From: Candidatus Omnitrophota bacterium
Lineage (GTDB): Bacteria > Omnitrophota > Gorgyraeia > Gygaellales > Profunditerraquicolaceae
Assembly: GCA_050012075.1 (NCBI GenBank)
Contig: JBEKHW010000001.1
Location: 132,766-196,765 of the forward strand
Reading direction: 5' to 3'
DNA: 64,000 nucleotides
The notes beneath the pieces are model-generated. The model did no database searches and was not told the DNA's origin. It saw only the letters and a list, made by a program, of their open reading frames with translations. The translations under genes and the position numbers were made by a program. This document shows, one piece after another, positions 1-63,600 of this stretch (positions within the stretch are counted from its first letter, which is position 1; every line of letters starts with the position of its first letter).

Positions 1-3000
1 ATTCTTTGGCGACTCTTTTTAAATCATATCTGTCTTTTTCTGCAAAAGAAGGGATTATTTTCATACCAGTATCGTCTAACCACAGCTTATCCTTATCTAA
101 CCTGTCTGTTAATACTATGTAGCCGAGCGAAGCTATTGTTTTTTCGTATAGTAACACGTATTGCTCTAACTCATTCACCGGATTACTCTTGCCTCTTCTA
201 AAACGCAGTAGCAAGACTACTAGGCTAGCTATACACATTGTTGGGCTGTGTAGAAGTTGATATATTAATCCTGAATCTGGCTTATTAGGTATTTTCTTTA
301 TTTTTTCATAAGTATCTAAAAGATCTTTTTTTGTTTCTGATTTATTTAATAACCAACGCATTGCCTGGGCCACTGCCATGTTGTCTTCTTTTGAGATTTC
401 TTTATTAATATCTCTTATAGTTAAGAGAATCACGTAGTTAATAAAGAAAACTTTTGTCGCAAACATCCTGGAAGTGAATTTCTTTAATTCTTCGCGCAAC
501 TCTGCCGTATCGCCACCCCTATAATGCCGCTCCAAAATCTCAATTGCTTCTTGCAGACAGACAATATTTATCGTATCGTATATCGTCTCTGCCTGCTTTT
601 GGCCGTACACCATTCGCTCATAGACTGCTTTTAAATTACCTAATACTATTGGTGGAGATTCCTCTTTCTTTATTCCAGAATATGCCCAGCGCGGCAATAA
701 TTCTTCCATGATGTACCTACCGGCTTCTTTAATCTCAAGATTATTTTTATTCAATGCTTCAATGCGCGATTTTATTATCCTGGCCAGCGACCGTTTTCGT
801 AGGTGATATGGCAAGACGACATAAGATAAAAATACTGATAAAACCACCACTGCTAATATCGTAAATTCAAGCAGCGAAATTTTACCGTCAGCTGCAAGGA
901 ACTTTTTTATCTGACTTAATCCGCTATCACTGCCAAGGATAAGCGCCAACAATGCAGGTCCGCTATAACAATATAATCCCCTGCCCCCACCCGCCTCTTC
1001 CGCCGGAGAGCTGCCGCGGCCGGTGCCATTTTTTGCCTGGTCTATCCTTTTCCATGCTTCCATGGTATTGCTCAACTCTTCATAAACCTCATCAGCAAAT
1101 CCATCGCGGTTGCCGACATCTTCTACGATAGGAATTATCTCTCCTAGTAATATGAATTCCTTTTCGGCAGAAAGCTGTTTTCCGGCCAAGCTAAATACCC
1201 TCTTTAATAACCCGGCTAATAAAAGTGCTTCGTTGGGTAGGAGGGGCTGCTTGGGGCAAATCGCCCAATAATCCTTTATCGCCTTAACGGCCTTGACTAA
1301 ATCCAAGTGGCGGTCCGACGCATAAACATTACAAAGCCTGTAATGCCCGCTTAGGAGGAATCTCCTGCTTTCGCCGCTAAAATGCACTTCCAGTTTTAGG
1401 CATTCGCCAAACAGTACATCTGCCTCAGACAGCATCTTTTCGGCAGAGTTGTAATCTTCGGCTTTAATCGCCTTATGTACCGCTTTTGTCTTATCGCTAT
1501 ATTGCATTACTTTTGTAATGGCTTCCATTAGCTGCCTCGGTTTCAAACGAAGCTCGATTGGGAAATACACTTCGATGCTTTTACGGACAAAAATATTCCG
1601 CCTTATCTGGAACGAAATCCAGTTAAGCATGTCTTGCCGGCTTCTCTGTACTTGGCGCCGTTCCGAGCTTTCTAAAAGAGAAAACAGGAACTTCACCAAG
1701 ATAACATCCGTGGTTTTAACATGTTCGTGGCTATACCATTTCAGGAATAAACTTAAGGACTCTATAAATAAGCCGGCGGCCTTCTTGAAATTGCCTTCTG
1801 ACGTAGCATTTGTTCCCAAACGCCTATAAGCCAATATCATGAAAGGTATCTCGCAAAGCACCTTTTCGTTAAACCTAGAACGCATCTGTTTATCTACGAT
1901 CTCCCTGGCTGTCTGCAGAAAAACAGCCGCTTCCTTGTATCTGCCTTGCTTCATCCTCTGATGCGCGAAGCGCGTACAAAATTCGCATTCCCACACCTCC
2001 TCGCACGGGCCTTTTCCTGCCGGTGAGCTGCCGCTTCCGCCCGTGGCGCTATCTTCAAGGGTGCCCACCTGGAGGAAGGCCCCAATGGAAATATTCTGGC
2101 CGCTATTCTTTATCAACGCTTTAGTGGAATCTACTAACTTAGATAGAGGCAGCTTCGGCTTGCCGTTTACGCCCATTACAAGGAGTATTTTTGCCAAAGG
2201 CCACTCTGCCTTATCTCCTATAGCGCTATCTATTATGTCAACCAGCTCCATACCTTTATACTTTAACCCTTTTTGCTGGATATCTTCATCGGATAAGACA
2301 GGCAATCGCAAAGCGTTTAATCCTTCCAGTATTGCCTGCCGCAACTGGCGCTCAACTTCCTGTTGTCCGTTTGCTGACGACAGTGTAGGTACTGGTTCAT
2401 CCGTGGGAATAACATCTGGAGGCCTGTAGTAATCGTCATCCCCAATCACGGGCACCTTTCTTAAAGGAATCTCTTTCTTTGACTCTGCCTTAACAGCTTT
2501 TACCGGATGTTTTCTTGTTCCTTTCTTCTCCCATTCTTTCCATTCCTGCCGCAGTTCTTTCAATCCCGCATACATTGATTTCAAAGAAGCCGCTTCTTTG
2601 TTCTTCTTTGCTTCAAGGATCATTATCGCTTCTTCTAATAGCCCTTCTGTAGTTACAAAATCCTGTTCGGACAGGGCCTGGGGTAATTCATCCCACAATT
2701 CTATTAACAGCTCCCAGAAATAGCAGGCCAGATCTATCCGCTGTTCTTCGACAATACTCATCTTTCTTGCCCTATTTTCAGCTGCGATGAGTCTGAATCT
2801 TTCTATCTGCGGCAACTGTTCATCCTGTTTTCTTGCGCCTGCCGCTTTTTTCGCAATAGCCGGAGAGCTGCCGCGCCTACCGCTTGAAAGCGATATTCCA
2901 TCGGGAAATAATTTATCTACATCGATGTCTAACGGCTCTTCCGGGACCATACAGATTTTACCTGCGCGTAAATCAAGCTCAGAAATCTCATTCGCTATCG

Positions 3001-6000
3001 CGATAACAATGTCGAGCCTTCTTGAAAAGAAATAGACCTTAGAAAGTATTCCGTAGGCCATCCGCGCATTATGCAAGATAAAGCCGGGATATTTCGGATA
3101 GTATCGCTTTAGCTCCTTAAGAGTGGTCTTGGCCCACTTTTCTGCTTCTGGCAAATCTCCTGATTGGATACATGCCTCTACAATCTTATGCAGCACGATG
3201 AAGCGGCCTCTCACGTCGCCTGATTCCCTGGATATCTTTTCTAATCTAATTAACTCATTTAACCTTTTGCCGGGATCAATGATTGCAAACGAATTCTTGA
3301 GCCCTTTTTTCACAAAAGGAGTAATGGGCCGCAACCTGGCAGGGCTGTTGCCTTTACTGTCCTCGCCCTGGCCGTAGCCAATATTGTTATTTGTTACGGC
3401 AACCGCGCTACCGGTGGCATCCCCATCGAGCCATTTTCGCCTTATGCTTTTATCAGGAAAGGTGCCTGTCAAAGAACCGGGTTTTTGCGCAATTAGCCTA
3501 TAGGCAGGATTCTTTAACTTATTTTCGAAAGCCAATTCCTGCGCCTCTATATCTCTCCTAAGCTGGGAGCTGATAGCGTCAATTTCCTGTTTGAGCGTTT
3601 TTGCATGCATACCGAAAGAATCGCTTAATTCATCTATGCTCGTACCCATCGCGTATTCAACAAATAGTTTCTGTTTGTAAGCAGGTAATTGCGCCAAGGC
3701 GCTGCGCGCCCTGGAGAATAATTCTAAATCGACGATAGCCCGTTCTGGTGCCTCTTTTTCTGTACTAAAGGTATCCAACCAAGTAGTTACTTTTCTATTT
3801 CCCTCATCTCCATAGCGCGCAGCGGATAAACTGACATTCTCTCGCGAGGCTAAGGAAGCGCGGCTTATAGCATAACCCTTAACCTTAGATCTTACTTTCT
3901 TAAAATATCCGAATTCATCCACTGTCCGCACCTTATATACAGATAAATATTTGCTAAGGATTACATAAAAAGCCAGATTGGCTTCATTAAATAAATCATT
4001 GACCCCTATGCCTTTCAAAGATAGATATTGCCCTTTATAATACCTTCCTTTAAATTCCGAACCCACGGAAAAGGCGGCATGGCCGGTAATATCATAGTGG
4101 GATTTGAGAAATACCTGAGAGGCATTAGTATTGCCTTTTTTAATCTCCCTGCATAAGCGTATTTCGGCAGCGCGGTCAGGCCTTAACTCGTTCTCTTTCA
4201 TATACATGACAAAACCCGGTTCCGACAGCTTGTTCAGCATAATTTTGTCGGTTTCTCCATCGCCGTTGGTAAAGGCCTTGGGATGAATAGCCTCAAGTAT
4301 CCCGTCATCGTAATAATAGCCTCCATTATTTGACGCAGCCAAGATAGGATGCGTATAATCAAGCGCTTCTCCTAAATAGAAATAATCATCCGACAATACG
4401 CCCAATTCTGAAAATATCTGCAGTATATTGTATCTATCAAGCAAATACATTGCCTTTAAAAATACCGTATTTGAATTATTGGAGGGATAGAGGTTTTGAT
4501 AAAGAGCTTCACTCTTTAGATACGGCTCATGCATAACTCTTGCAATAATCCTACGCGCTATCTCAAGCTGGACAAGGCGCGGATGTAAATCTATATCTTT
4601 TAGGCATGGTATAGCGGATAAAAATACTTCCCAAAGCATGGATTGTCTTAAGGGGATATTCTGCTTTTCTTCTTTTTCCAGGCGCATACCGGTAAACATA
4701 CGCAGAAAAGACTTTGCCTGAACAGAGAGCATTTTTCTTTTGCCTTGTAACTCTTCAAAATTATTAAAGGTTACGATGGAGCCGTTGGTATCTTTTAATA
4801 TTCCTGACCAGTACGCCTTATCGTCAATGGATAGTTCAAATCCCTGCTTGTCGTCCTTCAGGCTAAATGCTGTCTTTTGCCTAATTATCTCTTGTAGCTT
4901 TTTAAATCTCTGCTCTTCTTTTTTAGCCCTCTTGCGCCAGGAAGCTAAGGGCGTGCCTTCCTTAATCAATCTATCAACAAACACCTCATTAACATTGGGG
5001 CTATCCATACCATCTATGGCTACAAAAGAACACCATCTGCCTTCGTTTAATACTTCTCTTATATGTTCATCTACGGTATTTTTGGCAATTATGCTGTAGA
5101 CTAAAACCGGTTTAGTCTGGCCAAAACGGTGTTCTCTGTCTGAGGCGTGGTCCATTATCTCAGGCACCCAGTCTTCATCTACAAAGATAGTGATATTTCC
5201 TGCGCAGAAGTTCTTTGACTGGCCTCCGCTCTTTACAGTGGATGCGATTATAGGATGGTCAAAGTTAGGTTCCTGGAATAAAGAAACATCTCTATAATTG
5301 GCGCGCTGCCTGCCTCCTAAGACAGCCAAAGCACCGAGATGGCTATAACGCGCCTGTAGGGCTTTTACTACTTCTCTAAAATTAGAGAAGATGACTATCT
5401 TTTCCTTTCTCTGCAGATGATACTTTACCAGTTCATCCACCTTTTCATACTTGGCAGACGTACAAATTATACCTTCAGGCATATCTTCTACTAAACTCGC
5501 ATCTATGCAGGCTTCTCTACCCCTCATTATCTTGGTCAAGATAATCGCCTTGCTGGGTTTCTTGCCCTCTTTTGCATAGTTTTTGACCCATGATTTAAAA
5601 TCTCCCCAGACCCTGTCATAGACTTTTTTCTGCTCTCCTTTTAATTCCACCTCTACTACGATTTCCTTTTTGGGAGGGAGGTCGCATAAAACTTCCTCTT
5701 TGTAGCGGCGCAGCATAAACCGCCTTAATTCATTATTTAAATTTCTTAAATTTTCAAATGAGCCGGAGAATAACGCGGCAAAGGTTTCTCTTGATTTATA
5801 TCTTTCCGGATAAAGCCAGTTTAAAAGATTGTAAATCTTCATTGCGGAGCGTCCGATAAGAGGAGTAGCGGTAACTAAAATCTTATACTCGGCATCAAAC
5901 TTTCGCAAGGCCTGCATATGGAGAGTTTCGTTACGCATTTCATGTGCCTCATCTGCAATAATAAAGTCGAAATTAAACGACTTTAACCCCGCGACTATTG

Positions 6001-9000
6001 CGTTGTTTCTTAAGCCCTCATAGTGAACAATCACAAAGCGGCAATCTTTGGCTAGTTCAAGCTCCCTGGCTAATTTTTCATTATTTCCCGAGATAACCAC
6101 GGTTTTATTTTGCATCAAGACCTTGGTGAGGATTTCATCCTCCCAAATTTCCTTGGCGCCGTTAGGGCAGACGATTAAGATTTTTTGCGCTCCCCGGCCG
6201 CCATAGGCGTTTAAGGCAGCGGCTATAACCTGAATGGTCTTACCCATACCCGGCTCATCAGCCAGGATAACTCTTTTATTGTCAAGCATAAAAATTATAC
6301 CCGCTACCTCGTAGAGCCTTAAGATAATCTTATCCTTATCTAACCCTTTTATCCTATCTTTGTCTATGTCTTCCAATAGCCGCCGGTAGTATTCCAGTGT
6401 ATTGCCGTAAGCATTTCTGATAATCTCCGAGTTAAGCTGATCTTGCGCTTGCTCATTAAGCTTTTCTAAGAACCGATTATCCCTGACTAAATTCGGATAG
6501 GAAAGCCGGATTATCTCCTGGGTCAGTATGTCAAGCTGGTTTGGCCCGAAAACAACCGGCCATTCTATTTCTCTCATCCTGGTAAAAGATAATGACCGGG
6601 TTCTCTGAGGCATAGCTGCCTTCTTCTCTACATTTCCTCTATCAGCCAAGGCACAAATTGATTTTATGGTATGGGCCAGTTCAGGGCGGCTTAGCTGGTC
6701 GCCATAAAATGCAGAAAGCAAACCAAACGCCCTTTCGGGACGGCCGCAGACATTGGAAATCTTTTCTATCGTGCCGCTATCTACCAGGGAGTCAAGGAGA
6801 GCCTTTTTTGCATCCGTTCTTTTCGTTTGCCTTAAGGCCTTGATTTTTTCTTCAATATAATCCCTGATACCTAAACGAATTAGCCAGCCGTTAATCGTGT
6901 ATACGCTTTCCCCGAAGAATCCGGCTACTTCTTTCTGGGTCATCCTGCGCTCCAGGAACAGTTCTTCCATTTTTTCCTTCAAAAAGTTTGCCTTGTTAAT
7001 CTCAACGAGAGATTCTACAAGCTCTTTTTTTCTTATAAACCCATAGGATTTTAGCTTTTTCATTACCTCAATGAGTTTATATCCGCAAGACTCAAATATC
7101 TGCCGGATTTTCTCTTCAGGTAAGCTTTTCTGTTTCTCTTTCAGCGCCTGGCCTATTATATTCTTTAGCCCTAACTTACCAATCCAATAATCAATGAGAT
7201 AGTTTTGGACGCCAAAATATCCGGCTGTGAGTTCCGCATTGCACCAATCATCCAAATGTACCCTTTCCAGCTCTTTTTTAAAGCTATCCAGAAGCCCTAA
7301 AATACTGAAGATAGCGATGTAATCTAGCCATCTCTCTTGCCTTATTCCTATCCCTTCCATCATCCGTGGAATATTCCAGGCATTATCCTGGCAGAACTTG
7401 GCTAAACCGGAAGGAGAGGTATCTATATTCCTGGTACGCCCTATAAATTCTAATAACCCTGAAGCTATGTTTAATCTCTTGTATAACGCTATTATGGTAG
7501 GCATACTAACACCGAAAATTTTAGGAAGGCTCTTAAAGCTTAAACCTGCCTTTAGATACTCTTCCGGTATCTTGTCGCGGAATTCATCATAAAGCCCTAA
7601 GGAGGCAAATCTTTCCTCTATCATAGGAGAACTGCCTGCTATACCGGCATGGGAAATCTTCTTAAAAGATCTGGCGATATGCCAATTATTTGCTGTTAAA
7701 ATAGCTCTGGCTTTCTCGTTAGGCGGCATAAGTTCCTTTTTCCATTCCCCTACCATAGAAACAGGGATATTGAATTTATGGGCGATTAGATTGTGGTTGC
7801 CGGCCTGCTGACAGTAAACCTTGATAAACTGCCTCTTTAACAGATGTATTGCGCCTAATTCTTCTAATAATTCAATATAAGAGCCATATTCCTTAACTCC
7901 CCGGAGGCGAGCTAACTCTCCACAGGCTATTTCCATATTCCATTTGTGCGCGGTGAAAATGGCTCCTGTCGGTTTCTTCCTGGCTTTAAGACTCTCGGCT
8001 ATCTCCTTATCAATGCCTAAATAAATAAGCCAACGCCTCACCGCAGCCGTACTCACACCGAAAAATCCTGCTACTCTTCCCGGCATCATCCTTTTTTCTA
8101 AGAACAATTCCTTCAATTTGTTCTTTATAAGGAAGGCCTTATTGATGCTGATTAAGAATTCTACTGCCGAGTTTTCTTTTACATTACCGTATGGCTTGAG
8201 CTTAAGAGAAACTTCTCCAATCTTATAGCTGCACTCCTCGAATATCTCTGCGATCTTCTCCTCGCTCAATCCGGATTGCATCTTTTGGAACTCACTGTCC
8301 GCCTTATCTTTTATGCCTAATTCCCTCATTAACATATTGATGGTAGTGTCAGTCACGTTAAAATATTTCGCCATCTTGCCGACTACACAGTTGCAATCTG
8401 AATATACCCGGCTTAGCTCTTTTGTAAAAATATCAAGCATCCCTAACTGGTTAAATGCTTTCATATAGCCAATTGAGTCGCACGTAATGCATAGTTTCTG
8501 CAGAATCAATGGGATATTCCAGGAATTATGCTGACAGAACTTCTCTAAAGAACCGGAGGACTTAGATATTACTTTATGGCGATGCATGGCCTTTATGGCC
8601 TCCGGCTCTAATTGTAATCTTTGCAATAGACTCATTGAGATCCTTATATCTTGACCGAGAGCTTTTGCCAACTTAGTAATGCTATATCCTGCCCTTATGT
8701 ATAATTCCGTCACCTTCCTGCGGAATTCTCCGTAGAGTCCCCAGGAGGCAAAGGCTTCTTCCAAGACATTGCCCCTTCCGTATTTAAATGAAAGCTCTTT
8801 CAGTGACTTGCCAATGTTCCATTTGTTCTTTGCTAAGACACCTCTTGCCTCTTTATCTAGAGGCATAAACTTATCCTCCCATCCTTTTACCGTAGAGGCA
8901 GAGATATTGAATACTTTAGCGATTAGATTATGGTTGCAAAGCTGTTGGCAGTAAACCTTGATAAACTGTTTTTTCAAGATGTGCGCCGCGCCTAATTGTT

Positions 9001-12000
9001 CCAATAATGCAAGGCAAGAATCGTATTTCTCAATCCCATAAGCTTTAGCCAACTCTGCACAGGCCTTCTCTATATTCCATTTGTATGCGGCTAAAATGGC
9101 AAGGATTGCAGTGTCGGCGGAAGGAATCTCCGTCTTACCGCCTATCTTTGCAAGGTATGCCCGTAGATGCACAAAATAAGGTTCAATTTTTCCCTTTAAT
9201 ATTCCGTCTTGTCTACCAGAGAACCCAAAATATCTGGCTGTTTCCTCTAAACTGTATCCTGTGTTGATATATACGGATATAAGCTTTTCATAAGAGATAT
9301 CTTCATAACCGAATTCTATGGGTATATCTAAGGCGCACCTTGCCTGGATTTGTCTGGGTAATCTTGCAAGAACTGCTTCCTTGCCCCAATCTTCTTCTTC
9401 CAAAATTCTGCATAGCTCATCCCTGGTAGGCGGTTGCCCAAAAACCTTCAGGCGCTTATCCGCTAACCAATCGGAGATAGTTGATACGTAAGCATTAAAA
9501 AATAAAGCGGTCTTCCCGATATCCTGGCCGTTGGAAAAATAGACCTGTCTTAGCTTTTCAGCAATAATATCTATACAACCTAATGCCTCCAACCTTTCCA
9601 AGATTCCACCTACGGCATTCACATACGTTCCCAGCTCAATAAATATCTTCTTCGTATCCCAGTGGCAGACTTTATCGCAAAGGTCTTCTATTTCTTTCCG
9701 GGATGGCTGCGGGATTAAATCTGCTTTTAACTTACGCACTTCGCCCTCACTTATAGCAAAAAACTTAGCTATCTTTTCTATAGAGCCTTTGTACCTTTTA
9801 TTAATTTCTCTGAATTTATCTTCAAAAATATTTCTGTGGTCTACGTTTGGAGCCCGGACCGTGATAGTTCCTTCTGATTTTACCGGTGCTGCTACTTCCG
9901 TGGAACGAACTGAAGAGTCAGAAGTATTGAGGACGGCTTGTTTTTTAGGTAAAGGTATCTTGAATCTATAACAGGCTATACGCAACAGAGTATCGCCTCC
10001 TTCTTTTCGGGATTTTTTCAGGACCGAAGAAACATTATTAAGTTGTCCTCCGGGAAGGGTGGCACGCCTGGCCAGTTCTAGCCGGGCTGATTCTTCTGTA
10101 GGATATTCTTCTACTCTATTAGATTTGACAGGTTTAGCCCTGTGCAATATCTTAGGTAACGTCATCTTAAACTTGTAACGAGCTCTATATAATGTAGGAT
10201 CACCGCCTTTTTCACGGGGTTTTGCCAGAGCTGAAACAGTATTATTGAGTTCACCACCGGCAAGGGTGGCACGCCTGGCTAGTTCTAGCCGGACTGATTC
10301 TTCTGTGGGGTATCTATGAGGTTTAATACTGCGGGGTTTATTTGGTAACGCTATGCTCAACTTACGGCAAGCTTTGCATAGCGCATTATTACCCCCCTCC
10401 TTATGAGATCTTTGCAAAGCTGACGCAACATTGTTCAACTTTCCACCTGGAAGGTTGGCACGCCTGGTCAGTTCTTTCTGTGCTGATTCCACTGTGGGAT
10501 ATGCAGGCTTGTTCTGTACGCCGGCAGGGCTGCTGCCCTTTGAAGGCCTATCTAATCTTAACGCCTTTATCAACGCCTCGGCAGAATTCAATCGTAAAGA
10601 GATTGCTGCCTGGCTCGTAATGGGCGTTGCAAGAAGGTCAGCAAAATAATCCAGGCCGTCCTCATCTCCCATCATAAGCAGGGTCTCTGCAATACAACGG
10701 CAAATCTCCGCAGGCATACTACTTGGCTTATCTTTGCCTAATAATTTCTTGTAGTAATCAATGGTATTACCCAAACGTAATGCTTCGGCTGCCGGAAGGA
10801 ATTTCAAGGTAAGAAGTATCGCGCTGCCAAGTAATCCTGTCTGGCCTTCTATCTCTTCAAAATATTCCCTAAGCTGAGTTACCACATAACCATATTCTCC
10901 TATGTCCCTAAGCGAATGCGCGATATCTTGAAACAATAACGTATCCATATTAGTGTCATGTGGGGCGCGCATCGAATATTCGAACCGTTCTTTTAACTCG
11001 GAGACCGCTTCTCCTGCGGGCTCCAGGACAGCAATAGCCCTTAATAAAGCTATCCTGGCGCTTGCCCGTTCAAAAAGCTCTGCTGTAACACTTAGAGGGC
11101 AGGCAAAATGCGTAAGTGCTTCTTTTAACGCAGGCACTAATTCTTCCCTACGGAATTCTGCCGCTAAATCTGCGCTCTGGAGAATAAGTTGCGGATTGTC
11201 GGAACCCAAGAGCCACTGAAGCCACAATAGAGCCCACCCGTCATTGCAGCGCACCAAAGCCTTAGTTACAGCAGCTATCTTCTGTGCCATCCCCATGGCC
11301 CTTGTATCTTGTGAAAGAGGCGGGATATTACTGCATCTTTTGTATAATTGAACAAACCGCAAATCAATTATCTTCTTTTCCTGCTCATCAAACTTCTGTA
11401 AATAAGGAAAGCTGGTTGCCCAGGCTTTGCCGACAGTCACGGCTGTTTGCGGATCTATATGCATTAAAGCCTCTAACGCAATTGCTTGTGCCGCCGTAGA
11501 AATATTTGAAAAAGTGAATATTTTATCTATGTTAAACCTTGCTGCCTGATGGCTAAAATAACTAAGTATAAGTGTCAGCCGAGCAAAAGCAAGATCCTCC
11601 CAGTATTCTTCATGAGAGTTTAGTAAAGAGGAAAGCACCACCTCCATGGAGGCAACAATGTCTTTGGTAGCCGCTGCCTTGAAATGAATTATTGCCAAGG
11701 GTAAGCGGTAATCTTTAGCCAGTCTTATGCCGTAAGAACGGGATTCAGAAAGGAACTGTTGCAGTTCTTCGGGGTGTTCTTGATAATAAAGGAAACTTTT
11801 CTTGCGTGCTTTGCTGTTTGGCCCAGTACAGAGCTCTTCCAGTATGTAGCGGAAGAAATCATTGAGGATAGCGCAGGGCTTGTTGACCGTATTCCAGGCA
11901 ACCTGGATGATACCGGAAACTGCTTCTCCTGGACCGATTGCCCGGACTATAATCTCGCCTAAATAAGTTTGGCCAGCTGCCAGATGCGGAGAAAATGCGG

Positions 12001-51500: not shown

Positions 51501-54500
51501 TTATTCACTACCTGCCTGAAATTATCCCGGTTGGCAGATACGCGGACAATTGGCGTAGAACGCTTACTATATTTGATGCTCCACGAGGCAGTCCTTGACT
51601 CGCCCGATTTAAGAATAACTGGGGTGGCTTCATCTATGAGACTGTTATAGAGATTAATCGCATTTGCCGCGGAGGTTGTCGGCTGGATACTGGCAACGCC
51701 CTCCGGGAAGTTAGGGTTACCTAAAGGCACGAAAAGCATTACATTCTTATATATGCTGCTTTGAGTAACATACAGATTCTCTCCGCTAAGCGGGTTAAAG
51801 AAACGGGAAATGATTTTCCTTTTCTTTGGATCAAACCCGGTAATCCCCTGCTCAAATGCACGGGTTAACGGAGTAAGCTCGCTCACATCTGTTGAACCCT
51901 TTTCTACAAACAGCGGCGGCTGGTAACGCGGGACTTGTAGCGCTTCTTTTGTATCGTGCACCTTCCAGTATTTTTTCCCGGGAACCTGCACTTCCCAGCT
52001 GCGGATATCATTCAGATAACCCCACCAATGGTCGCCAAAGCTGCAGATACGCCGTTTTGTATCTTTATTCACTACTTCGGTTATTGGCAGGAATTCATCT
52101 TCTTTGAGCCAGAGGGTGCGAGTAAGGTCAAAATTGCCGAAGTTACTGCTGATTTCCGCGGATTCGCTTGTGGAGTAGAAAAGCTTGATGTAACGCCAGC
52201 CAAACCAGCCTTTTCCTACGCTGATAAAATGCCATTTAACTTTATCCGTCATCCCGTGCAGGGCATTTGGCCCAGTTACAAGATCAGGATTATAACGCAT
52301 GGTTTTCAAACCTTGGCCGGCACTCACATTAATTTTTTGGCCATCAAATTCCGCTATCCCGTTATGTATACGGCTGGTCCAGGGGAACATAAAAGGTATG
52401 CCACCGGGAAGTGGTAACCCGGTTTTTTCATCTACCAAGCGCGTGACTTTACCTTTAGTAGCATCAAAACCCTTGTGCCAGACAATGCGCTTACCGTTCA
52501 ATACCAAATCCACAATAGTGCCGCCTAATTCAGCAACGGAAAAGTAAGAATTCTTACCGCATGATACCGTGCGGATTTTATAACCGTCATCAGAAATATG
52601 TTCCTTGTAATTCTCCTCAGGCGCGACCATTGAGGCCACTTTAACGCGTTCAAAGATAGAAGCGCCCGGCCTTCTGGAGGAAACCCCGAAGGCATTATAT
52701 GTATTTATGCACAATAACGCGGCCCCGCATCCTACGAGAGGAGTCAACCATCCCCACCATGGCAGGAGGTTAAGATACCAATAATTGAGCGGGACGACCC
52801 AACATCTTTTCCACACGCGCTCCCAGGTCTTAATAACCTGCCAAGATAAACTGTAATCCGCGTTTACCACCTCAACATTCTCAAGAGAATTTTCTCTGGC
52901 TGCTTTCCTGGCAAAATAGCCCGGTATAAATATTGAATACAGGGAAATAAGCCCCACGCCTGGTATGTAGATGATCAGCGCGCGAAGCAGATTGTAAAGA
53001 CTCCAAGTTCCTACCTGGGGGACGAAATGGCCGATACCGGCAATCAGGCCCTGCATGGCTACCCCAAGGAATAAACCCGTAACGAAAATGGTAGCTGCGC
53101 GTTTTAAAGATTGGGAGAAGCTATGCCTGGGCCCGTCGGCAATACGCATACCCACAAAATCTCCTGCGACAACCAGGGATGCAAACAACAGGATGTTGCG
53201 TAACAGCACCTGGTCCAATGCAAAAAGGTACAGCAGCGTTTCTCCTATGCCGAATAATGACAGGCCGATAGCGCCTGTGACTAGCGCAGTCAAACAAACT
53301 GCCGAAACTATCAAGCGCCGCGATGAAAGCGCTTTCGTTTCTGGGCCAACAAAATCTACGGCAGGAGAAGAAGCAACCGACCCGCCGAGCACTGCGACAA
53401 GCGACACATCCTTTATAAAATCTATTTCTTTTAATTCATTCTTGCCATAACGCCGGCCTGCTTTTTCTGTATAATAGAGATTTTCTCCTGCCTTATAAAT
53501 GCGTAGATCGGCATTCTTGCAGCGGATGATGATGTCTTCTGCTTTCTTGAGCCGGTATATCTGTAAATCAAGACTGTCGGGGAATTTATTACTTGCCCAG
53601 TCCAAGATCATAAGCGTATCCTGCAGCGGCCTGTATCTTATATGATCTATGACTCTGCCTGCGGCGCCATTTACCTCCAGCAAATTCCTTAAAGTAACTA
53701 TACAAATACCTGCTGCTGCGGCCAGATTCTCCGCGAAGGAATCTTCTTCCGGAGTAAGCCTTACGCTAATCTTAACCTTCTTCACTTTGGAAGGATCAAG
53801 AGAGAGTTCTGCCATAATCTGCTGAAGTAGGGCCCTGAGCGGATCAGGTATTACCTGTTTTTTATTTTCCTCTTCCGGAAAATAAAATCCTACGCGGGCA
53901 TTCTTTTTGTTGCGTAAATCCCAAAGAGTTAAAAGGGTTGTTTTTAAGCTGGGATGAAAGATCTCTTTACCTTGAATTACTGCCGGAGCAATCTGTAGAT
54001 AAATCTTCTGGGCTACATTTTTGCCTATGATTTTTACTGCGCGCGGGATTTTAAGGGTGAATACGCCGATCCCGGAAAAGGTCTCGATATCTCTGGGCCT
54101 TATATTATTAAACATTGCCCGGGCGGCTTTAAACTCCTGCTGCCGGATAAGCTCCTTATAGAGACAGTTGGCGCGGATTATTGTCTGCCTTGCCGGACTT
54201 ATCTTCAATAAACCAAGTAATAACCTTTGTAATTTTGTTTTTTCCTTGCCCCGCGCCTTTATTTCTTTGGCCAGATAAAAGATGGTCATAATAGAGCCTA
54301 TCCTGTCCTGGAAAAGCGCAAAAAGCCCGGTCTGTTTTATGATATAGCAGGCAAAGTCAATCTCCTTCTTACTCGCTGCGACTAACCGCTTCAATAAGGC
54401 CTGCTGCGCGCCCTCAGCTATCTCCTGGTTGAATTCTCCTCTTAGTTTTTCCTGGAATGACCGGGATATGACCTCTACAATGCCTAATGCGTGCTGATGC

Positions 54501-57500
54501 TTCGCCTGGTATTTCTTAAACACCTTACCTATATTAAGTATGTATTCACCTAACAAAGGCACAAGCTCGTCCAAAGGAGTAAGGGATGTCCTGACTATTT
54601 CTTCGGTATCCAGGTCCCTTAACGCAAGGCGTCCTTTTTCATTCCAGGTCTTAAGATATGTTCCGGAGACTTCATATCCTTGCCTTGCGTCTATGTTCTC
54701 AAATATAATTCTCGTGGTGTAGATATCCCGTACCGTCAATGACTGGTTTGACTTACGCGTGGCCAGATGGGTAAGGGTGAGCTGGAAACCACTCATTGCA
54801 TCAATGTCTTTGAATATTATCTCTTTGGTTTTTACCGCTCTTAAGGTAAGATGGCCGCCTGCTTTACGCGTAGCCAGATGCGTAAGCGTCCACGCATAAT
54901 CCCATGTAGCGTCTATGCCGCAAGCTGCTTCCCCGTCCTGAAATACAGGGTTTTCTGCAGGGTCAAATAGCCATACGCGCTTGGATACGCCTTTGACAAG
55001 CTGATAGCCGGCTTCATTTCTCTCAATCTGCCTGACTTTTTCTTTGATTATATTTTCAAACTTCGCGATTAACGCCTCATCTGTAATTACAATCGCGGCA
55101 GGAGAAGAGCCGGCTTGCTTCGTTTTCTCAACACTAGGACGCCTATTCTGATCTTTAAAGGAAGCGGTTAAAATTGCGCCTAATAATAATACATAAAGCG
55201 CCATCCCTGTGGGCACTGCCCAAGATAGATAAGAACCGGCAGGAGGGCTTTCGTTCAACTTATCTTCTACCGCGATTTTGTACGCCTTAACGTCAAATAT
55301 CTTCTTATTGAAATTAACGTACATCGGCTCAAGCTCCGAAACCTGCTCCCAGGTATTGCCTCCTAAAATCCTATTTATCTCTTTATTGTCTCCGGTTAAA
55401 TACAGATATTCTAAAACCTTAAACCCTCTTATACGGGCTGCATCAATATCCTTTAATCCTGACCTTTCACCGATTTTTTCTGCAAGATAAATGACGGCTT
55501 CCTGCTGGCATGGATAGCAGGAGATATCCACAGAACTTAAGACCGAAGATAAATCACCATTTACAATCAGCGCTCTTTCAATCAGGGTGGTCATCCCCTC
55601 ATCCAGTATCTCGTTTTGGAACCCTGCGGCATTAATATGCAGGGCCTCGTGTAGATGAGTCCTCTTAATCCGTTCTGCAGAATCTTTTATCAATAACGGA
55701 TAAATGAATTCTTTACGGCTGACCCCGGGATAACTTCTGCCAGTGAGATTCTCTTCCGGCTTATCAATAAATACCGGCTGCGGCTTCTTGTATCTCAAAC
55801 CGAAAGATTCAATATATTTCCTGGCTATTTCATCGCCTTCCCTGACTATGTTATCTTCTAAAACAGAGGCAGGCCTTGAATTATTCCGAGCATAAACTGC
55901 GATATCAACTTTTTGCAGATTATAGAGCAGAAGAAATGCCGCGCCTATCTCAATCGCCAAGAGGGCAACGAGCAGCAAGGCGTTGGAAATTGGGCTGTCT
56001 TTTTTACCAGTTTTTGTCCGCGCAGCATCTGAGGGCACCGTTGCTGGGCTGCTAACTATTCCTGCTTGGTTTAACAGGCCAGGCTCCGCCCTATGGACTG
56101 CAGGCGCCTGGATTTCAACAAAGGTTTCTCCGGAATATGTGTAATTCGCCAGGAATCCTGTGATAGGTGGAGAGTTTTCAAGTATTTCCAGCCATTCAAT
56201 GAGCTGCCCCTGTAAAGCTCCTGACTCCGGCCCTATATAGGTAGACATATTGGTATCTTCATATATTGAGCCCACGTGAGCGGTTATGACAATAATGAGC
56301 GAATTGGATTCTTTCTTGAAGGCGGTTTCAACCGGTATTGCCGGGGTTGAGGAAGTTTTTGTGCAGACATTACAGCCTAAATCCTGCTGTTGACTATTTA
56401 CAAACGGCCCAACAGTAGCGGGCGAAGAACCGCCCCGCTCTGCTATCAGCCGCACAGCTTCGATTGCCGCGGGTGTAGCAATCTGTGTCCCCGGTAACGT
56501 TACGGTTGCTGCGCCAAATAAGCTCGCCTGATGCAGCGCCTCTTCTTCGCTTCCGCCTTTAGCTAACTTAAGCACAAACCCTGCGTTTGCGGAATCACCG
56601 GCTCCAACAGGGCTTACCACTCTAACCTTGATAGCCGGTTCTTTTATAACCCTACCATCCCGCAATACCAGTATCATTCCTTCTATATCCTGCTTTACCA
56701 GGACACCGCGTAAATTATATTTCTTTATGAGCTCGCGGGAATATTCCTCTATCTCATCCGCGTTTAATTTCTCTCTGGATAAAACACCTCCACTGGCAAA
56801 CCCCATTTGTTCCAATATCGTGATAAATTCTTCTTTATTAGGAGCGATTATATCAGAGGGCTCTTTTCTTTCTACTTGCGCCAACACTGCTTCTGTTTCT
56901 GCTTTGGTAGTGGACCCCCTCTGGAAGTCCAGAAGCGCCTGGATATTATGCCTATGAGCGATCTCTACGATAGATTTATAAATACGCGGCGTTTCGTCCG
57001 ATGCAATCTGCCCTCCTACGGTTGTCACCAGCCACTTACAATTGGGAGCGCCGGACAGCATCCTGTCAACTTCGTTTAATAAATTATCTGCGACCTCCGA
57101 GGAAATCACGCCTCCTAAACTAGTCATTCCGGCAATAAGCTCACCGCCTATAATATGGTTAATAAGTATCTTGTGCGCGGTTTGTGTGGGCACAAAAGAA
57201 GCTATGATATGCTCATTCGCTAATTTCCGGCAGCGCATATCAGCAATCTCGTCTCTTCCCTTAAATCCCACAAAAGCAATATATTCATTCTGATTTGACA
57301 CTGCCTTGGCTGTATTTGCCGCTCCCCCGCCTGCATCAAACTGAACATCAACCAATTCTAATGTGCCGTCGCCCTTATCCTTCCAAACAAAGGCAATATC
57401 CGCTGCTCCGCATATATTGACTCCCATAACCATCGTTTTATTTAATAAACCTTCTCCGGAGAACTCCGGTTCTCTAGTGTCGGGTGATTGCTCTTTCCTT

Positions 57501-57541: not shown

Positions 57542-57697
57542 AATTCCATTTCTCTTGCTTACTTCCAGGCCCCTTACTGCCTTTGTTGCTATCTTTAAGG
57601 ACTCCGCGGTTATCGCTCCCTGCAAATATTCAGCCAGTTCTTTTTTAACAGTATCAACAATCTGCTGGAGAGCTTCCTGCCCGGGCACTGCTGCCGG

Positions 57698-60600
57698 GCT
57701 AGAAGCTTTCTTGCCGGCTTCTGCTAAAATATGGGCCGGGTTCATCGTAGCGATATCGGCCCCGGATGCAAGCAGCCGGTCAAGCAGGTTCTCGTTATCG
57801 GTAAATCCGATGATACGGATATCGTTACCCAGGATATCACGCACCTCTTGGGCTATGTAATGGCTGTCATCTACCAAAGCGCTCTGCTTGAGAGGAATAT
57901 TGTGTTTATTAAGCAAATCACCGATAGCGATGATCTTTTCCCTGCTAGAGGTGCCCCTTCTTTTCTCGTGAAATTCCCCAAAGAGAGGAATATTCTCCCA
58001 GATGGGCTGCGTCCTTTCCGGAATGTTGGATGTAGCCAGGAAGACTTTGATACCCCTCTGTTTTAAATCCAGGATCAATTCTTTAATGCCGGGGGTAAGC
58101 AGGCTCTCCGAATCAGTATCTAAAATCTTTTGCGTCCGCTGCCATCTTTCTTTTTCAAAAATATTCAGATATTCCGCGGGAGAAAGGAATTGCCTTGTGG
58201 ATTGGGATGCCTTGGCCTGCCTTATCAGATCACCTATCGCCCCTATTTCCGGTAGCCCCCGCGTATACTCATCATAATAAGCCCTGCCAGCCCTCAGATT
58301 TTGCTCTGTCCTCTCTAACTTCAGGATTTCAAGATATATCGTATCTACAAAGCAGTCCCGCGTCAGCCCTATATTAATGACAGTGCCGTCCATATCAAAA
58401 ACCACTGCCTTGAGATTACGGACCCATTCCGGAACAGCAAATGGAGCGGCCGGAGAAGAAGCACATTCTTCTTTGATTTGCTTCCATAATTCGTCTGCTT
58501 GCGCCTGGGTATGGCTGAAACCTAACTGCTCATTTAGGCATAACCTTGCAATGCTTATCTTACCCAGGCCTTTAATATCTATATACTTCGTTAAAATATC
58601 TCTATTAGTTTGGCCATCTTCAACTTTAAATGTTTCTCTCAGTATTTCTGTGATGAATTTTTCTTTCCCCTGTTCAGAGATAAGAGGCTTTCCCTTGAGA
58701 TTCTGAAATGCAGCTGCTCTTGTTTTAAAGGACAATTTTTCGGAAGAAATACCCTCGAACTGTTCTGCCCTATCACTCCCCTCCAAGGGTATCGTCATAC
58801 CGACATGTGCAGGTACAATCGTAGCAGGCAGGTTGCCATCGACTAACCTGTTGACTAATGCTTGTTTTGCTTCTTCTGGGGCGTGGACCAAGACAAGGTT
58901 CTTGGGATTTATCTTGCCGATAACGTACGCCAGGCCTCTTTGGTCGGCATGAGCCCTAAAGAGGAATTTCCTGACCTCGGCGTTTACCTGTATAATCGCT
59001 TCGCCTTCACCAGACGGAATAGCTATTTTCTTTCCCTTCTGAAGATTGAGGATCTGTGCCGCAGGGCTTTCTTCCGTGGCATAACCTACGAAAAAGATGG
59101 CATTAGCAGGATTACCGGCCATCTGCGTAAGATACAACAGGGAACAGCCTCCCACAAACATTCCTGAACCGGCAATTATAATATGCGGCTCTTTTAGTTC
59201 AAGAATCGACTTTCTTCTGTCGCGGCCTACCGCAATAATATTACTGCCATCCTCGAATAAATATTCTGAGCCACGTACACGGTATCTTTTGTAAAGCCCG
59301 GCCGTCCTTATCGCAAGGCCGTCAATATAGATATTGGCCTGAGGAATAATACCCTTTCGTTGATATTCCTGTAAAATAAGGGCTATCTCCGTTGACCTTC
59401 CTATCGCAAAAGCAGGGACCAGGATAGAGCCACCCCTGCGCAAAACCTCTGCTACCGAAGCGGCAAATTCTTCTTTTACGGATTGACGCGGCGGCAGATT
59501 TGCTTCTTTGCCATAAAGCGCCTCCATGATCAATAAGTCGATTTCTGCCGTAGATAGCCGCATAGAATCCACCGAATTCTGTTTTTTCACGGAAATATCC
59601 CCGGAATAAAAAATGTTACCGTAAGGAGTGGCTATGATTACCGAGGCTGCGCCAAGGATATGCCCGGCAGGAATAAAGAGCACCTTGATGTCTTCCGAAA
59701 GCCTGTACCATCTTCCAAAATCAACGTATCTAAAACGCTTTGAAATATCCGCAAACTCTTTTCTATTAAACTCATTAGTGAGTAAAATCCTGGCTAAGCC
59801 AAAAGTAGGAGCTGTAGCAAGTATCTTGGCATCCGGCAACTGCCTTGCTGCCTCTATCAGTGAGCCGGAATGGTCAAAATGGGCATGGGTAATGATTATA
59901 TGGCCTATCCGGCCTTCTACATTGCTTAGGTCAAGGGGCTCCAGGGTTTTGGGGTCTGCTCCGATATCTAAAAGCAACTTTTCGCCGGCAATATCTGCGA
60001 GAAATGCGCTCTTACCCGGCTCATCCACTCCGCCTAAAGGCGTTATCTTTATTTTATCTCTCTTCAAAGGAGATTCATCTTCAAGCAGCGCCCGGCACAA
60101 GCCATCATAAGATTCCTGCACGCTCCTATCATTCTCAAAGAAAGATTTTCCGGCCACAAACACATTGGCCCCTGCCTTGGCTGCCTTTCTTATGGTGAAA
60201 CGGTTAATGCCACCGTCTATTACAATATCTCCGTCAAAATGATACTCATTCCTTAATATCCCGATATTCCTTACCGCTATGCCTTGCTGGTCAAACTTCT
60301 GGCCGCCCCTGCCCGGATAAACGCTCATCTGCAATACTCTATCGATGTACTTACGGTTTTCCATGATGAACCTGCAAATAGCATGGATATCGGCTTCGGG
60401 GGATGGGTTTAGAGCAAGTGCGGCAATCCCGTCGTAGGCCTTAATCAACTTAAGGCAATCCAATAAGCGCCCTTTATCTTCAAACCCCTCCCGGTGCAGA
60501 GTAATCATCTTGGTTCTGAATAAGATATAGTCCCGCACCAGGCGCTCAAAGCTGCGGGAGATCGCCCGGCTATCTGCCATTACCATCAGGTGCGCATCAA

Positions 60601-63600
60601 ACATTGTGCCGGTATCAGCCTGCCGAATAATCCTCCATACCCCCCTCGGAGTCAATTCCTTTAAAGTATCTTGCGCATTTGCCTGGACTATGGCGCTGCC
60701 TACGCCATTATTGCTGTCTATTACATCTATGTGAATGATAACCGGAATGGGGCCTTTCTTTCCTATCTTTATTGCCTGAAGCGCTTTCTGGCGCCTATCT
60801 GCCTTTGGAACACTGAGCACCGACGGCTCAATGATAAATCTCTGGGCTGTCGGAGAACTTGCCTTGTAAAGAGCCGGAGCCGGTTGTCTTGGATATAATG
60901 AACCGGCCGCTACGGTGGACTTATTTAACTTTTCCAGCTGCGCCTGTGCAGCCGCGTAGTCCAATACATTGCCGCCTAAATTTAGTAGAAGATCGCGAAG
61001 GCGATTAGTATAAAAATGTATCCCAAGCGCGCCCAAAAGATTATTGACTTCTTCATGTATCAGGCCACCTGTAACAGCAATGAATTCATGTTTAATAATA
61101 TCTTCACTGCTCATCTTCTTTAATTTAGGAGAAAGCTTCATTGTCACAGAAGATAGATGTTTGCCCTGATGTTTTATGGAGGCTTCCATAAGCAATTCGT
61201 GAACCGCTATTAAAACAGGGTGGCCCTTTGCTTCTTCAGGAAGCGAGGCGGCGTTTCTCATTCTTTTTTGGATTTGATCTATTATCAAACCTTCATGTAC
61301 TATTATTGCTCTTCCCTGTGGATGGTTATACAAACCTTGCAGGCAAAGCGGCAATCTTTCAACGCCGCCTATCTCCTGAAGCATCTCTCCCGTTATCACG
61401 CAAGCACCGCAGTCAAATTTCTCACTTTTTGTTGTATATACCTGAACTCCTTTGGCGATCTCCGGTTTACTTATACCGTGCGTGATTCTCGCAATATCCT
61501 CTTCTAACTGCTTACGAAAATCCTCTACTATATCCAGGCCTTTTGTTAAAGATTCGACGGCATTACCATTAATTAAATCTTTTACCAAGTCCTTTACCTC
61601 TTCTCTATCTTTCCCATCTGCAGCGAAATCTAAGCCATCCTGCCCGGATTTACTTTCCAGATTATTACCGGCCGCTGCGGCAAACTTTGCCCCCACCAGC
61701 CACGGAGAGGATAGCAAAGTCTCTAAAATACGCCACAGCGGCCGGATTATTGAAAGCGCTTTCACTTTAAGCCGTAAAAATATGCTTACTGAATTATCAC
61801 AAGATAAAACGGGTGAAGCAGGTGAAGACCCGGCATAACCCGCAGCGCGGCCATTCATCGCAAACTCGGTAAGAACCGGGGCATCTTGCGCAAGATAGTC
61901 ATAAGAAGGCACGGGAGCTTTAGTCACAACATACTTTTCAATATTCAGGATAAAATCCCTCCATTCAGAACTGGCTTTTATAATCTCTCTTAAGAAGCCT
62001 TGCCAGGAGCTTCTTAAGCCATATTCCTTGGGGGTCACGTGTAGATGGCTCCAATACCGGCCTTGCTGGTCGTGTTCTCCGCCTACCATAGGACTCATCT
62101 GCCCCTTATGGAGGAGCCATTCCCGTAAATCAATCATCACCGGAACCCCAAAATAGGCTGCCAAGATTAACAGTTCAATAAATCCTTTGACCGGGCCTCC
62201 CAACGTTGCCAATGACCTCTCGTCATAGTTGGAAGGATAGATGAGCAGTTCCGGCATCCTGATAATGGCATATTTTAATGACTCAACTAAATATCTTCCG
62301 GCATCATTATTACCTTCAACCATTCTCCTGTAGTCGCCGTAAACATTAGGATAATAAACCTTTACTTCGACCCCGGCCTCTTTTGCCAGCCGCAGCAATT
62401 CTTTTCTGTCTGCCTCTTCATACGCCTCCATGATAAATTTAAATTTCTTGCCTTTTACGGAAGCAAATATCATGGACCAGGGCTCTGGCTGCTTTGCCAG
62501 ATAATCTGGGGAGAAATATGTGCCTAAGTTCCGTTTTAAAAGAAGGTGCGGCAGGTCAGCACGCGCTCCTATCGCACCTGAATTAATATGCTCCTGGATA
62601 GAAGTAATATAATATTCCATTACTTCCGTGTTAAAAGGATTGAGGAATACCTGGTCAACATTGGGGACCCCGGCGAATCCTACTAAATGTTTGACGTATA
62701 CCGGCCTGGGCTGCTGGCCATCCGCAACCCTTATCACGCAAGAGCCGCCGTTTTTACTGACTAAATCATCAACAAACCGCTGCTGCATGATTGCAGCAGC
62801 GCGCCTTCGGTACATCTCACCCTGTCTGGCATCTAATTCGGTATACATGGTCCAGCGATAATTTTTCTCCGTAATGGCGTCAGGGGATAACCACGGGATG
62901 AAATCAACAATAACGCCCATTCCTAATTCCGCGGCACGTCCGGTAAATGCCCGCAATGCCTGCCTAGGTTCATCTCCGTTACACAATTGAGGATCGATCT
63001 CCCGCATGCTATATATCGAAAAACTATTACCGTGACAGTCGGTTAATGTAATATCTCCTATCGTAGCTTTCTTGGTCAGATAATTGTTTACGGAGATGGT
63101 AGGGTAGTTCGGTTTTTCTCCGGTGAGGATATACTGCGCTGCGGCAGGAACCCGATGCAGCGATTTTGATATTAGTCCCTTCTTGTACAGATTATAAATA
63201 TAAACTTCTCCTACGCCGCTATCTGCCAATATAGGCAAAATCTCTTCGGCTTTATTGAAACTGTTTTCATAAATAACTGCCCCGCTCTTTGGATCGACCA
63301 CTGACCCGATATCAGCTAAGTTCATAGCAACCGTCAATTCCTTGATTTGATGGCCGTTGCTTAACGCCTGATCTTTTAAAGGAGATGATCCTACCTGGCT
63401 ATTTTGATGGGCTGCGGCAGAAAGAGAGCCCCCACCAGCCACGGAGAGGTAATCCTTTTCTACATTAATGTTTTTATTTCTATCTCTCTGCACAAAGCCA
63501 TTCTCCGAACTTGCCTTTACTGTCGTCGGCGAAGAGCCGTTTGAGTTATTTCCCTGGAAGACCGTGTTTCTAAGCACCTCCCATGTTAAACCTCCCTTAA

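Follow-up and report, generated by a model that had tools for sequence, protein, structure and literature searches.

Giant genes of the Omnitrophota have been reported by West-Roberts et al. (2023; bioRxiv 10.1101/2023.11.21.568195) and by Seymour et al. (2023; PMC10066038), and 'multi-enzyme metabolic cluster' giants of up to 147,155 amino acids have been described from the class Gorgyraeia by Nielsen & Lui (2026; bioRxiv 10.64898/2026.06.07.730766). Public catalogues of Omnitrophota proteins with at least 10,000 residues comprise 916 and 5,761 entries in the last-named study, which also reports an orthologous pair with 58.6% identity. Cleavage of Omnitrophota giants has been suspected since S8 and C39 domains are common in them, and the want of known cleavage points has been named as an obstacle (bioRxiv 10.1101/2023.11.21.568195). 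The central question for these proteins, explicitly posed in the literature, is whether each remains one molecule or is cut into many. Here, we describe a stretch of 64,000 nucleotides (nt) from a Candidatus Omnitrophota bacterium (contig JBEKHW010000001.1; the window), which is occupied from end to end by the internal part of one giant open reading frame (ORF), and a pentapeptide, [G/A/S/V]-SSP-[A/T/L/S/M], that recurs at 41 sites in its coding frame. The motif marks junctions, lying in the linkers between protein-sized units. That it serves as a recognition site for endoproteolytic processing of a cellular polyprotein is the explanation that we tentatively prefer, at a probability somewhat short of even.

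The gene belongs to a known class, that of the Omnitrophota multi-enzyme giants, although the window itself holds no marker gene. The author of the earlier note on this DNA had known of no described giant-gene family with such punctuation; the class had in fact been described, while the punctuation seemingly had not. Like the giants of the Gorgyraeia and Velamenicoccia, the locus consists of one ORF, whose 21,333 open codons exceed the minimum of 10,000 by which such giants are recognized, is tiled by many distinct Pfam families with none dominant by copy number, HAD, HATPase_c and sugar-metabolism enzymes among them, and encodes numerous transmembrane helices; its nearest homologues are found in Omnitrophota metagenome-assembled genomes (MAGs) and its sequence is poorly conserved across lineages. 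Unlike the giants as published, for which neither a recurrent motif nor unit boundaries have been reported, it has 41 boundaries that share one pentapeptide; the words motif, cleav-, linker and polyprotein occur nowhere in Nielsen & Lui (2026; bioRxiv 10.64898/2026.06.07.730766). The junction punctuation appears to be new.

A parallel in anatomy is offered by viral polyproteins, which are cut between Q and G by picornavirus 3C, between LQ and S, A or G by coronavirus Mpro, by potyvirus NIa and, in pp220 and pp62 of African swine fever virus, between GG and the next residue (GG-X). As in these, a single ORF here holds several units of the size of mature proteins, joined in accessible linkers by a short conserved peptide with small residues, and some junctions would be left uncut to give multi-domain products. 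Unlike them, the present gene is a cellular bacterial one, ten times longer, with housekeeping and regulatory proteins as its units; its motif differs from any viral cleavage site known to us. MARTX and large clostridial toxins, in which an internal cysteine protease cuts between effector domains after Leu, are likewise giant modular bacterial proteins whose inter-domain linkers hold the release sites (candidate sites in the present case), but their units are toxins and their junctions number 3–5 rather than at least 41; the window has no C80/CPD Pfam match, and Leu stands at position +4 in just three of the 41 sites. Multi-core precursors of ribosomally synthesized and post-translationally modified peptides also bracket each cassette of one precursor with repeated short sequences: cyanobactin recognition sequences flank cores that are cut by S8 proteases, and amatoxin precursors are cut after Pro by POPB. 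The cassettes there comprise 6–10 residues, whereas those here are whole folded proteins of ∼300–1,900 residues. The double-glycine site of C39 peptidases, for which the criteria are a C39 domain and a G-[GAS] behind an amphipathic leader that is hydrophobic at −4, −7 and −12, also differs: the positions upstream of the motif are hydrophilic and the window has no PF03412 match; [GAS]-S could mimic the −2/−1 pair.

A recurrent pentapeptide in one open frame

Frame 0 of the minus strand comprises 21,333 codons without a stop and runs off both ends of the window (1–64000), whereas the other five contain 599–1625 stops each. No ORF terminates within the window because the entire 64 kb, with a G+C content of 44.6%, is a single open frame. 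All features given below lie on the minus strand; residues are numbered along frame 0 and nucleotide positions are those of the window. Pfam and NCBIfam models identify ordinary, normally separate proteins in series (∼19 families, each in at most two copies). At least 42 protein-sized units are joined in one frame, 40 of which are complete within the window; from motif to motif, the median unit length is 364 residues (interquartile range 296–595), similar to that of ordinary bacterial proteins.

The two serines and the proline of the motif are invariant by definition. From the composition of the frame, 3.6 occurrences of SSP, 0.31 of SSPA and 0.24 of [GAS]SSP[ATLSM] are expected, compared with 44, 32 and 39 observed, the last rising to 41 once Val is also accepted as the first residue. 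Copies in the remaining five frames number 0–2 each. The recurrence of an in-frame junction motif, as the earlier note had it, is thereby confirmed, and the motif is frame-specific rather than a nucleotide-level repeat that also appears in noncoding frames. Position 0 is occupied by Gly in 24 sites, Ala in 12, Ser in three and Val in two, and position +4 by Ala in 32, Thr in three, Leu in three, Ser in two and Met in one. The earlier note had the motif often preceded by K, R or G; Lys or Arg is found at −1 in 18 of the 41 sites (p = 1.9e-6), with a small residue at +5 in 29 (p = 2.3e-7), and no residue conservation is seen farther out than these two positions. Forty of the 41 coordinates originally listed translate exactly as given, while the GSSPA placed at 57662–57676 reads EALQQ and corresponds to an ASSPA at 57692–57706 (residues 2099–2103). 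The nucleotide string described as recurring, the exact + strand 14-mer GCCGGAGAGCTGCC, occurs just three times, whereas its synonymous variants do recur.

The earlier suggestion that synonymous codon variation places the conservation at the peptide level holds for both codon usage and position-specific nucleotide information. All six Ser codons (AGC, AGT, TCT, TCC, TCA and TCG) and all four codons each for Pro, Ala and Gly are used, at approximately background frequencies apart from an excess of TCT at the second Ser (22 observed, 8.3 expected). Nucleotide information is restricted to codon positions 1–2 of the five codons (nt 0–13), with 0.02–0.56 bit at the third positions and nothing past the 15 nt. 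Scores from a position-specific scoring matrix (PSSM) built from the sites are bimodal. No site of the 41 scores below 13.5 bits, and a near-cognate GNSPA after the ECF-sigma domain (3338–3352, residues 20217–20221) scores 13.1 bits; it is the sole sub-threshold site above chance, and nothing else in a PSSM scan of the ORF for decaying copies exceeds the expectation from shuffled sequence. That decaying copies are lacking while third positions are nearly random argues for purifying selection on the peptide, and the use of both AGY and TCN serines at the same motif position argues for selection for Ser.

A pair of paralogous units provides an internal comparison. Units u22 (34424–35386, residues 9539–9859) and u40 (1016–2017, residues 20662–20995) are separated by ∼11,000 residues and share 31% identity over their full length of ∼320 residues. 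All four bracketing motifs are kept: GSSPS (35387–35401, residues 9534–9538) and ASSPA (34409–34423, residues 9860–9864) on the N- and C-terminal sides of u22, and GSSPA at 2018–2032 (residues 20657–20661) and at 1001–1015 (residues 20996–21000) on those of u40, the latter being followed by a transmembrane helix 45 residues on. The spacers between the conserved core and the motifs differ in both sequence and length (23 versus 12 residues on the N-terminal side). With the spacers diverged and the motifs kept, the pentapeptide has evidently been retained in linkers that otherwise drift freely. No relatives were found when the u22/u40 alignment was searched against metagenome contigs.

Motif position at unit ends

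All 41 sites fall outside the recognized domain envelopes, which cover 18% of residues (P = 3e-4). The placement of the motif at boundaries of enzyme-sized units, proposed in the earlier note, is confirmed wherever it is testable, but the motif is not present at every domain junction; the sites fall between folded domains rather than within them.

The clearest boundaries are those of a complete, apparently active methionyl-tRNA formyltransferase (Fmt) unit (40097–41035, residues 7656–7968), directly preceded by ASSPA (41036–41050, residues 7651–7655) and directly followed by ASSPL (40082–40096, residues 7969–7973). The Fmt equivalog model (315 positions) extrapolates to residues 7651–7968. An exhaustive HMMER search of 1.84 billion representatives returned only free-standing formyltransferases, at no more than 40% identity, and no giant-embedded homologue. 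In free-standing enzymes of ∼310 residues, residue 1 maps 3–6 residues past the upstream motif and the C-termini extrapolate onto the downstream one. In an AlphaFold2 (AF2) model based on 90 sequences, residues 61–365 are confident, with predicted local distance difference test (pLDDT) values of >90 for the catalytic domain, and both flanking motifs lie in segments with pLDDT 52–65, the downstream one being coil. In Foldseek, the model aligned over ∼315 columns with crystal structures of complete Fmt (TM-scores of 0.77–0.80, normalised to the target), and the catalytic N/H/D residues are conserved. The unit is very divergent, with at most 40% identity to any representative and 39% on the domain alone; its best match by score has 31% identity (E = 3e-28).

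Other recognizable domains end, or begin, close to a motif. PfkB, the second RpiB copy and HATPase_c end 0–3 residues ahead of one: the PfkB-family sugar kinase domain (56432–57433, residues 2190–2523) directly before GSSPA (56417–56431, residues 2524–2528), RpiB copy 2 at ASSPS (50720–50734, residues 4423–4427), where the CPBP unit starts, and HATPase_c three residues before ASSPL (38828–38842, residues 8387–8391). The ribulose-phosphate 3-epimerase (Rpe) model (residues 1051–1306) begins directly after ASSPT (60848–60862, residues 1047–1051). Three further domains lie 11–19 residues from the nearest motif. The IMPase/HisN-like domain (44756–45547, residues 6152–6415), within a 300-residue unit (residues 6135–6434), has ASSPA 17 residues upstream (45599–45613, residues 6130–6134) and SSSPA 19 residues past its end (44684–44698, residues 6435–6439), with a transmembrane cluster 20 residues beyond. 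A full-length HAD hydrolase starts 12 residues after ASSPA at 58448–58462 (residues 1847–1851), which closes the unit containing Rpe and a β-CASP/MBL ribonuclease (residues 1317–1739), and a SidJ-like domain starts 11 residues after GSSPA at 20624–20638 (residues 14455–14459). An RpoA-CTD-like domain ends 15 residues before GSSPA at 13754–13768 (residues 16745–16749). Fmt, IMPase, HAD, PfkB and Rpe are all full length, and many of the units are complete, apparently active housekeeping or regulatory proteins.

The immediate surroundings of the motif have the character of exposed linkers. In the 12 residues on either side, hydrophobic residues are depleted (0.27 versus 0.354, z = −5.5) and disorder-promoting residues enriched (z = +4.8). 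Kyte–Doolittle hydropathy, a crude measure compared with DeepTMHMM, gives ∼29 peaks of >1.7, grouped into 7–9 transmembrane clusters. Seven of nine clusters begin 2–45 residues after a motif, where independent membrane proteins would have their N-terminal anchors; random placement equalled this in 0 of 200,000 draws. Thus placed are a helix 20 residues after VSSPA (56042–56056, residues 2649–2653), a cluster ∼10–15 residues after ASSPA (53360–53374, residues 3543–3547) and a helix two residues after GSSPA (35744–35758, residues 9415–9419). The number of transmembrane helices between cytoplasmic enzymes varies with the hydropathy threshold, and an argument from parity on whether the chain is uncut was dropped.

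The remaining boundaries are, in order along the chain, GSSPT (63524–63538, residues 155–159), GSSPL (63377–63391, residues 204–208), GSSPA at 61817–61831 (residues 724–728), 55097–55111 (residues 2964–2968) and 43670–43684 (residues 6773–6777), SSSPA at 42806–42820 (residues 7061–7065), GSSPA at 28562–28576 (residues 11809–11813), VSSPA at 25652–25666 (residues 12779–12783), ASSPA at 24785–24799 (residues 13068–13072), GSSPA at 23444–23458 (residues 13515–13519), SSSPA at 18842–18856 (residues 15049–15053), GSSPA at 16985–16999 (residues 15668–15672), GSSPT at 16550–16564 (residues 15813–15817), GSSPA at 15473–15487 (residues 16172–16176), ASSPA at 14729–14743 (residues 16420–16424) and GSSPA at 12251–12265 (residues 17246–17250), 10523–10537 (residues 17822–17826) and 2858–2872 (residues 20377–20381).

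The three closest database proteins, relatives of individual units, are themselves large fused proteins. P0001 (L004, 1–5727) is a Candidatus Omnitrophota MAG protein that fills a whole 5.7-kb contig and has 49% identity to the β-CASP unit; P0009 (L001, 10001–16357) and P0029 (L002, 2793–9539), of ∼2,100–2,250 residues, embed Rpe or IMPase among other domains. P0029 has the order His_Phos-PHP-His_Phos-IMPase-IMPase, P0009 embeds Rpe and P0001 embeds β-CASP, in each case amid unannotated and transmembrane segments. With 1,900–2,250 residues, the three may represent an intermediate grade of fusion. An 'ASSPA' that follows an IMPase domain in P0029 was considered as a conserved junction and rejected; it aligns with 'IASSKKAK' of the window, in the C-terminal helix of the IMPase, and the true junction motif of the window lies 20 residues beyond this position. 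The β-CASP alignment searched against genome contigs retrieved only the contig of P0001 itself, the C-terminal 957 residues found no related loci in genome or metagenome contigs, and scans of viral contigs gave no relatives.

Possible processing and its alternatives

That a pentapeptide should be so strictly conserved in exposed linkers, at the termini of complete proteins, implies a trans-acting factor that recognizes it. The earlier note had offered an inter-unit linker, a cleavage site or a modification site; the inter-unit junction is supported, and the evidence leans towards processing. In the processing model, the signal would be (K/R)-[G/A/S]-S-S-P-[A>T,L,S,M]-(small), held by purifying selection at the protein level, and a site-specific endopeptidase would cut the giant precursor there into individual proteins, as viral polyproteins are processed; domains joined without a motif would stay fused as multi-domain products. 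Processing is favoured over a passive linker by the strict conservation of five residues in drifting linkers without decayed copies, by the protein-sized units with their own N-terminal transmembrane anchors in an arrangement like that of viral cleavage sites and by the presence of enzymes that normally oligomerize or act on DNA or tRNA. The oligomers Rpe, RpiB and IMPase, and Fmt, sigma, helix-turn-helix (HTH) and SNF2 proteins, which need access to tRNA or DNA, would be hard to reconcile with tethering in a membrane-anchored chain of >21,000 residues.

The scissile bond might lie after position +4, with Pro at P2 and small residues at P1 and P1′, or the cut might be post-proline. AAPA and AAPX, with Pro at P2 and a small P1, are substrates of subtilisin- and α-lytic-type enzymes. 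Candidates for the processing enzyme would be a CPBP/Rce1-like intramembrane protease, unit u11 of the same ORF (49694–50719, residues 4428–4769), or S8 or C39 peptidase domains of the kind reported elsewhere in such genes. The EExxxR, FxxxH and HxxxN signature motifs of u11 are intact; its role as a candidate is speculative. Two HExxH sequences, HEALH at 55634–55648 (residues 2784–2788) and HEVLH at 36821–36835 (residues 9055–9059), compare with 0.4 expected by chance; the first lies in a 310-residue unit with an N-terminal transmembrane anchor. They may mark zincin-type peptidases, but a permissive Pfam scan gave no family for either, and the AF2 model made for u8 from its sequence alone, with a pLDDT of 43, was too poor for use.

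Several observations weigh against processing. The motif is missing from P0001, P0009 and P0029, at 39–49% identity, and at the orthologous end of the β-CASP unit P0001 reads ...ELKNT-RRIFG... where the window reads ...KEEC-ASSPA-APF.... A 45-column profile of the 41 sites, meant to retrieve motif-bearing proteins of whatever homology, gave 33 candidates, none with E ≤ 10, a weak negative given the unknown sensitivity of the method. Some domain junctions are motif-free: those between Rpe and β-CASP (58784–60850), between aldose 1-epimerase, RpiB and RpiB (50735–52579, residues 3808–4422) and between an SNF2 helicase (residues 19226–19683) and an ECF-type sigma domain (residues 19972–20151), the two domains, at 3548–6325, lying in one motif-delimited unit. 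Conversely, at 20624–20680 two perfect GSSPA copies (the first at 20666–20680, residues 14441–14445) stand nine residues apart (GSSPAGQVNGKDSRGSSPA) and would delimit a 'unit' of only those nine residues, and the atypical GSSPM (7622–7636, residues 18789–18793) sits in a loop of a repeated HTH-like module of ∼88 residues, where sister modules read 'YGRGN'. Among proteases, searches of the window with Pfam, NCBIfam and PDB sequences recognized only the CPBP-like unit, which is not linked to the motif; CPBP enzymes normally act at the membrane and not on soluble linkers. No S8, C39 or C80 peptidase domain was found in the window, beyond which the ORF continues. Published topology surveys also treat the giants as intact membrane-anchored proteins, which favours an uncut chain. 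The doublet may be a junction duplicated without cargo, and the RpiB tandem, as partners of a kind that work as a dimer, would fit deliberate fusion in one product.

Such an uncut chain is the strongest competitor of processing, although we regard it as unlikely. The motif would then be a functional linker of the intact giant, a conserved hinge or a docking or modification site, for example for Ser phosphorylation or O-glycosylation at S-S-P or for binding of a prolyl isomerase, chaperone or scaffold. Exposed, hydrophilic, low-confidence linkers with strict peptide conservation would suit any recognition in trans, and S-P is a common type of modification site. This explanation leaves unaccounted for the coincidence of the motif with complete protein termini and N-terminal transmembrane anchors and its lack between partner domains such as RpiB and RpiB, and it retains the difficulty of picturing oligomeric or tRNA/DNA-acting enzymes on a tether.

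A different origin for the motif is that of a scar of gene assembly, in which 14–15 nt would form the site of in-frame cassette capture, by site-specific or microhomology recombination with duplication of the junction, and the peptide would be a tolerated by-product. Its support comes from the distribution of codons. At the first Ser, sites of one codon family cluster together along the gene, with 19 TCN and five AGY in the first 24 sites and two TCN and 15 AGY in the last 17 (runs test P = 0.012; post hoc Fisher test 2.5e-5), while background Ser usage is alike in both parts (37% and 36% AGY); a change between AGY and TCN requires passage through a non-Ser codon. Adjacent sites have more nucleotides in common than random pairs (P = 0.0009), and the sites at residues 4423, 4770 (GSSPA, 49679–49693, residues 4770–4774) and 5148 (GSSPA, 48545–48559, residues 5148–5152) are pairwise identical at 21 of 27 nt. 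To these may be added the over-use of TCT at the second Ser. A neutral peptide would have decayed given the synonymous drift, however, and no degenerate copies exist; the third positions are nearly randomized, nothing is conserved past the five codons, and AGY and TCN at the same position require selection for Ser. No extended DNA element of the integron attC type or with inverted repeats was found, since nucleotide conservation ends with the coding motif. As an account of what the motif does, a scar is therefore quite improbable. Assembly is better seen as the birth of junctions, which is compatible with processing: codon-family clustering and the similarity of neighbours suggest descent by junction copying, and junction DNA seems to have been copied when units were added or duplicated, or to have been locally homogenized, with the peptide then kept by selection. 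New junctions would thus arise from existing ones as the gene grows. The sharing of codons and flanks between neighbouring sites is clearest at 48545–50734 and 1001–2872.

Very improbable, in our assessment, is a co-translational signal, in which nascent S-S-P-A would cause ribosomal pausing, bond skipping or transfer of the chain to a targeting factor at each unit boundary, the units then folding, inserting or being released singly in the protease-free manner of 2A/StopGo peptides. Pro is a poor substrate for peptidyl transfer, and a location at unit boundaries, right before transmembrane anchors, would suit a pause for folding or targeting. Against this, the 2A/StopGo consensus D(V/I)ExNPGP is absent from the ORF, which lacks NPGP altogether and has a single NPG; there is no conserved upstream nascent segment, the only upstream preference being that at −1; known bacterial arrest peptides and stalls that depend on elongation factor P differ in sequence; and Met or start-like features are, by inspection, not enriched after the motif. 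Chance, low complexity or an assembly or annotation artefact can be given practically no weight, for although the source lineage was not found in the collections searched, the enrichment is at least 100-fold and frame-specific, and sequencing error cannot produce a stop-free frame of 64 kb. The embedded enzymes, moreover, have retained their catalytic residues and give confident folds, and a similar fused architecture is seen in the nearest relatives, which are Omnitrophota proteins.

Further units and implications

Besides the histidine-kinase ATPase (HATPase_c), the SidJ-like pseudokinase, the RpoA-CTD-like domain and the other units described above, Pfam and NCBIfam identify a GlnD-type domain, sigma-70 region 4 and an HTH domain. 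The tandem RpiB/LacAB-type isomerase domains occupy 50735–51628 and are preceded in the same unit by the aldose 1-epimerase and a segment with 4–6 transmembrane helices; the tandem could form an in-chain pseudo-dimer. The unit of residues 13520–14440 contains ∼8 tandem copies of a 36-residue repeat ('AGDIAVEAVKNNLPGISAADVMGWIKEC...') at 22426–23281 (residues ∼13575–13860), with a 108-nt period and 78–86% nucleotide matches, to which annotation assigned no family; its 'LPGIS' resembles a helix-hairpin-helix motif. At 20000–20590 (residues 14471–14667) the SidJ-related pseudokinase match is weak (NF033874, E = 3.5e-11, far under the family cut-off) and is followed by a DUF6923 repeat. The HTH-like modules of ∼88 residues are repeated across the boundary of u37 and u38 at ∼6800–8800 (residues ∼18400–19060), with copies 42% identical. 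Rfam and tRNA scans of the window were empty, with no ribozyme or RNA element at the junctions.

The 41 sequence-defined boundaries are the first candidate cutting points for the unexplained giant proteins of the Omnitrophota and, because they coincide with the ends of complete enzymes, the question of one molecule or many becomes directly testable. The motif also provides a principled way to divide such giants into units for structure prediction and annotation. In its fullest form, the processing model would have a free-living or episymbiotic bacterium make dozens of housekeeping, membrane and regulatory proteins as a true polyprotein, with a dedicated protease and pentapeptide and with growth by in-frame capture or duplication of cassettes at junction DNA, a proposal that we place on the unlikely side. 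If cleavage does occur, a cellular organism would be relying on a polyprotein for its core metabolism and for the regulation of genes, and the codon-family pattern would offer a first look at the growth of such genes. Viral polyprotein expression would have in such a system a cellular counterpart, one that takes the place of operons, start codons and stop codons across a large part of the proteome.

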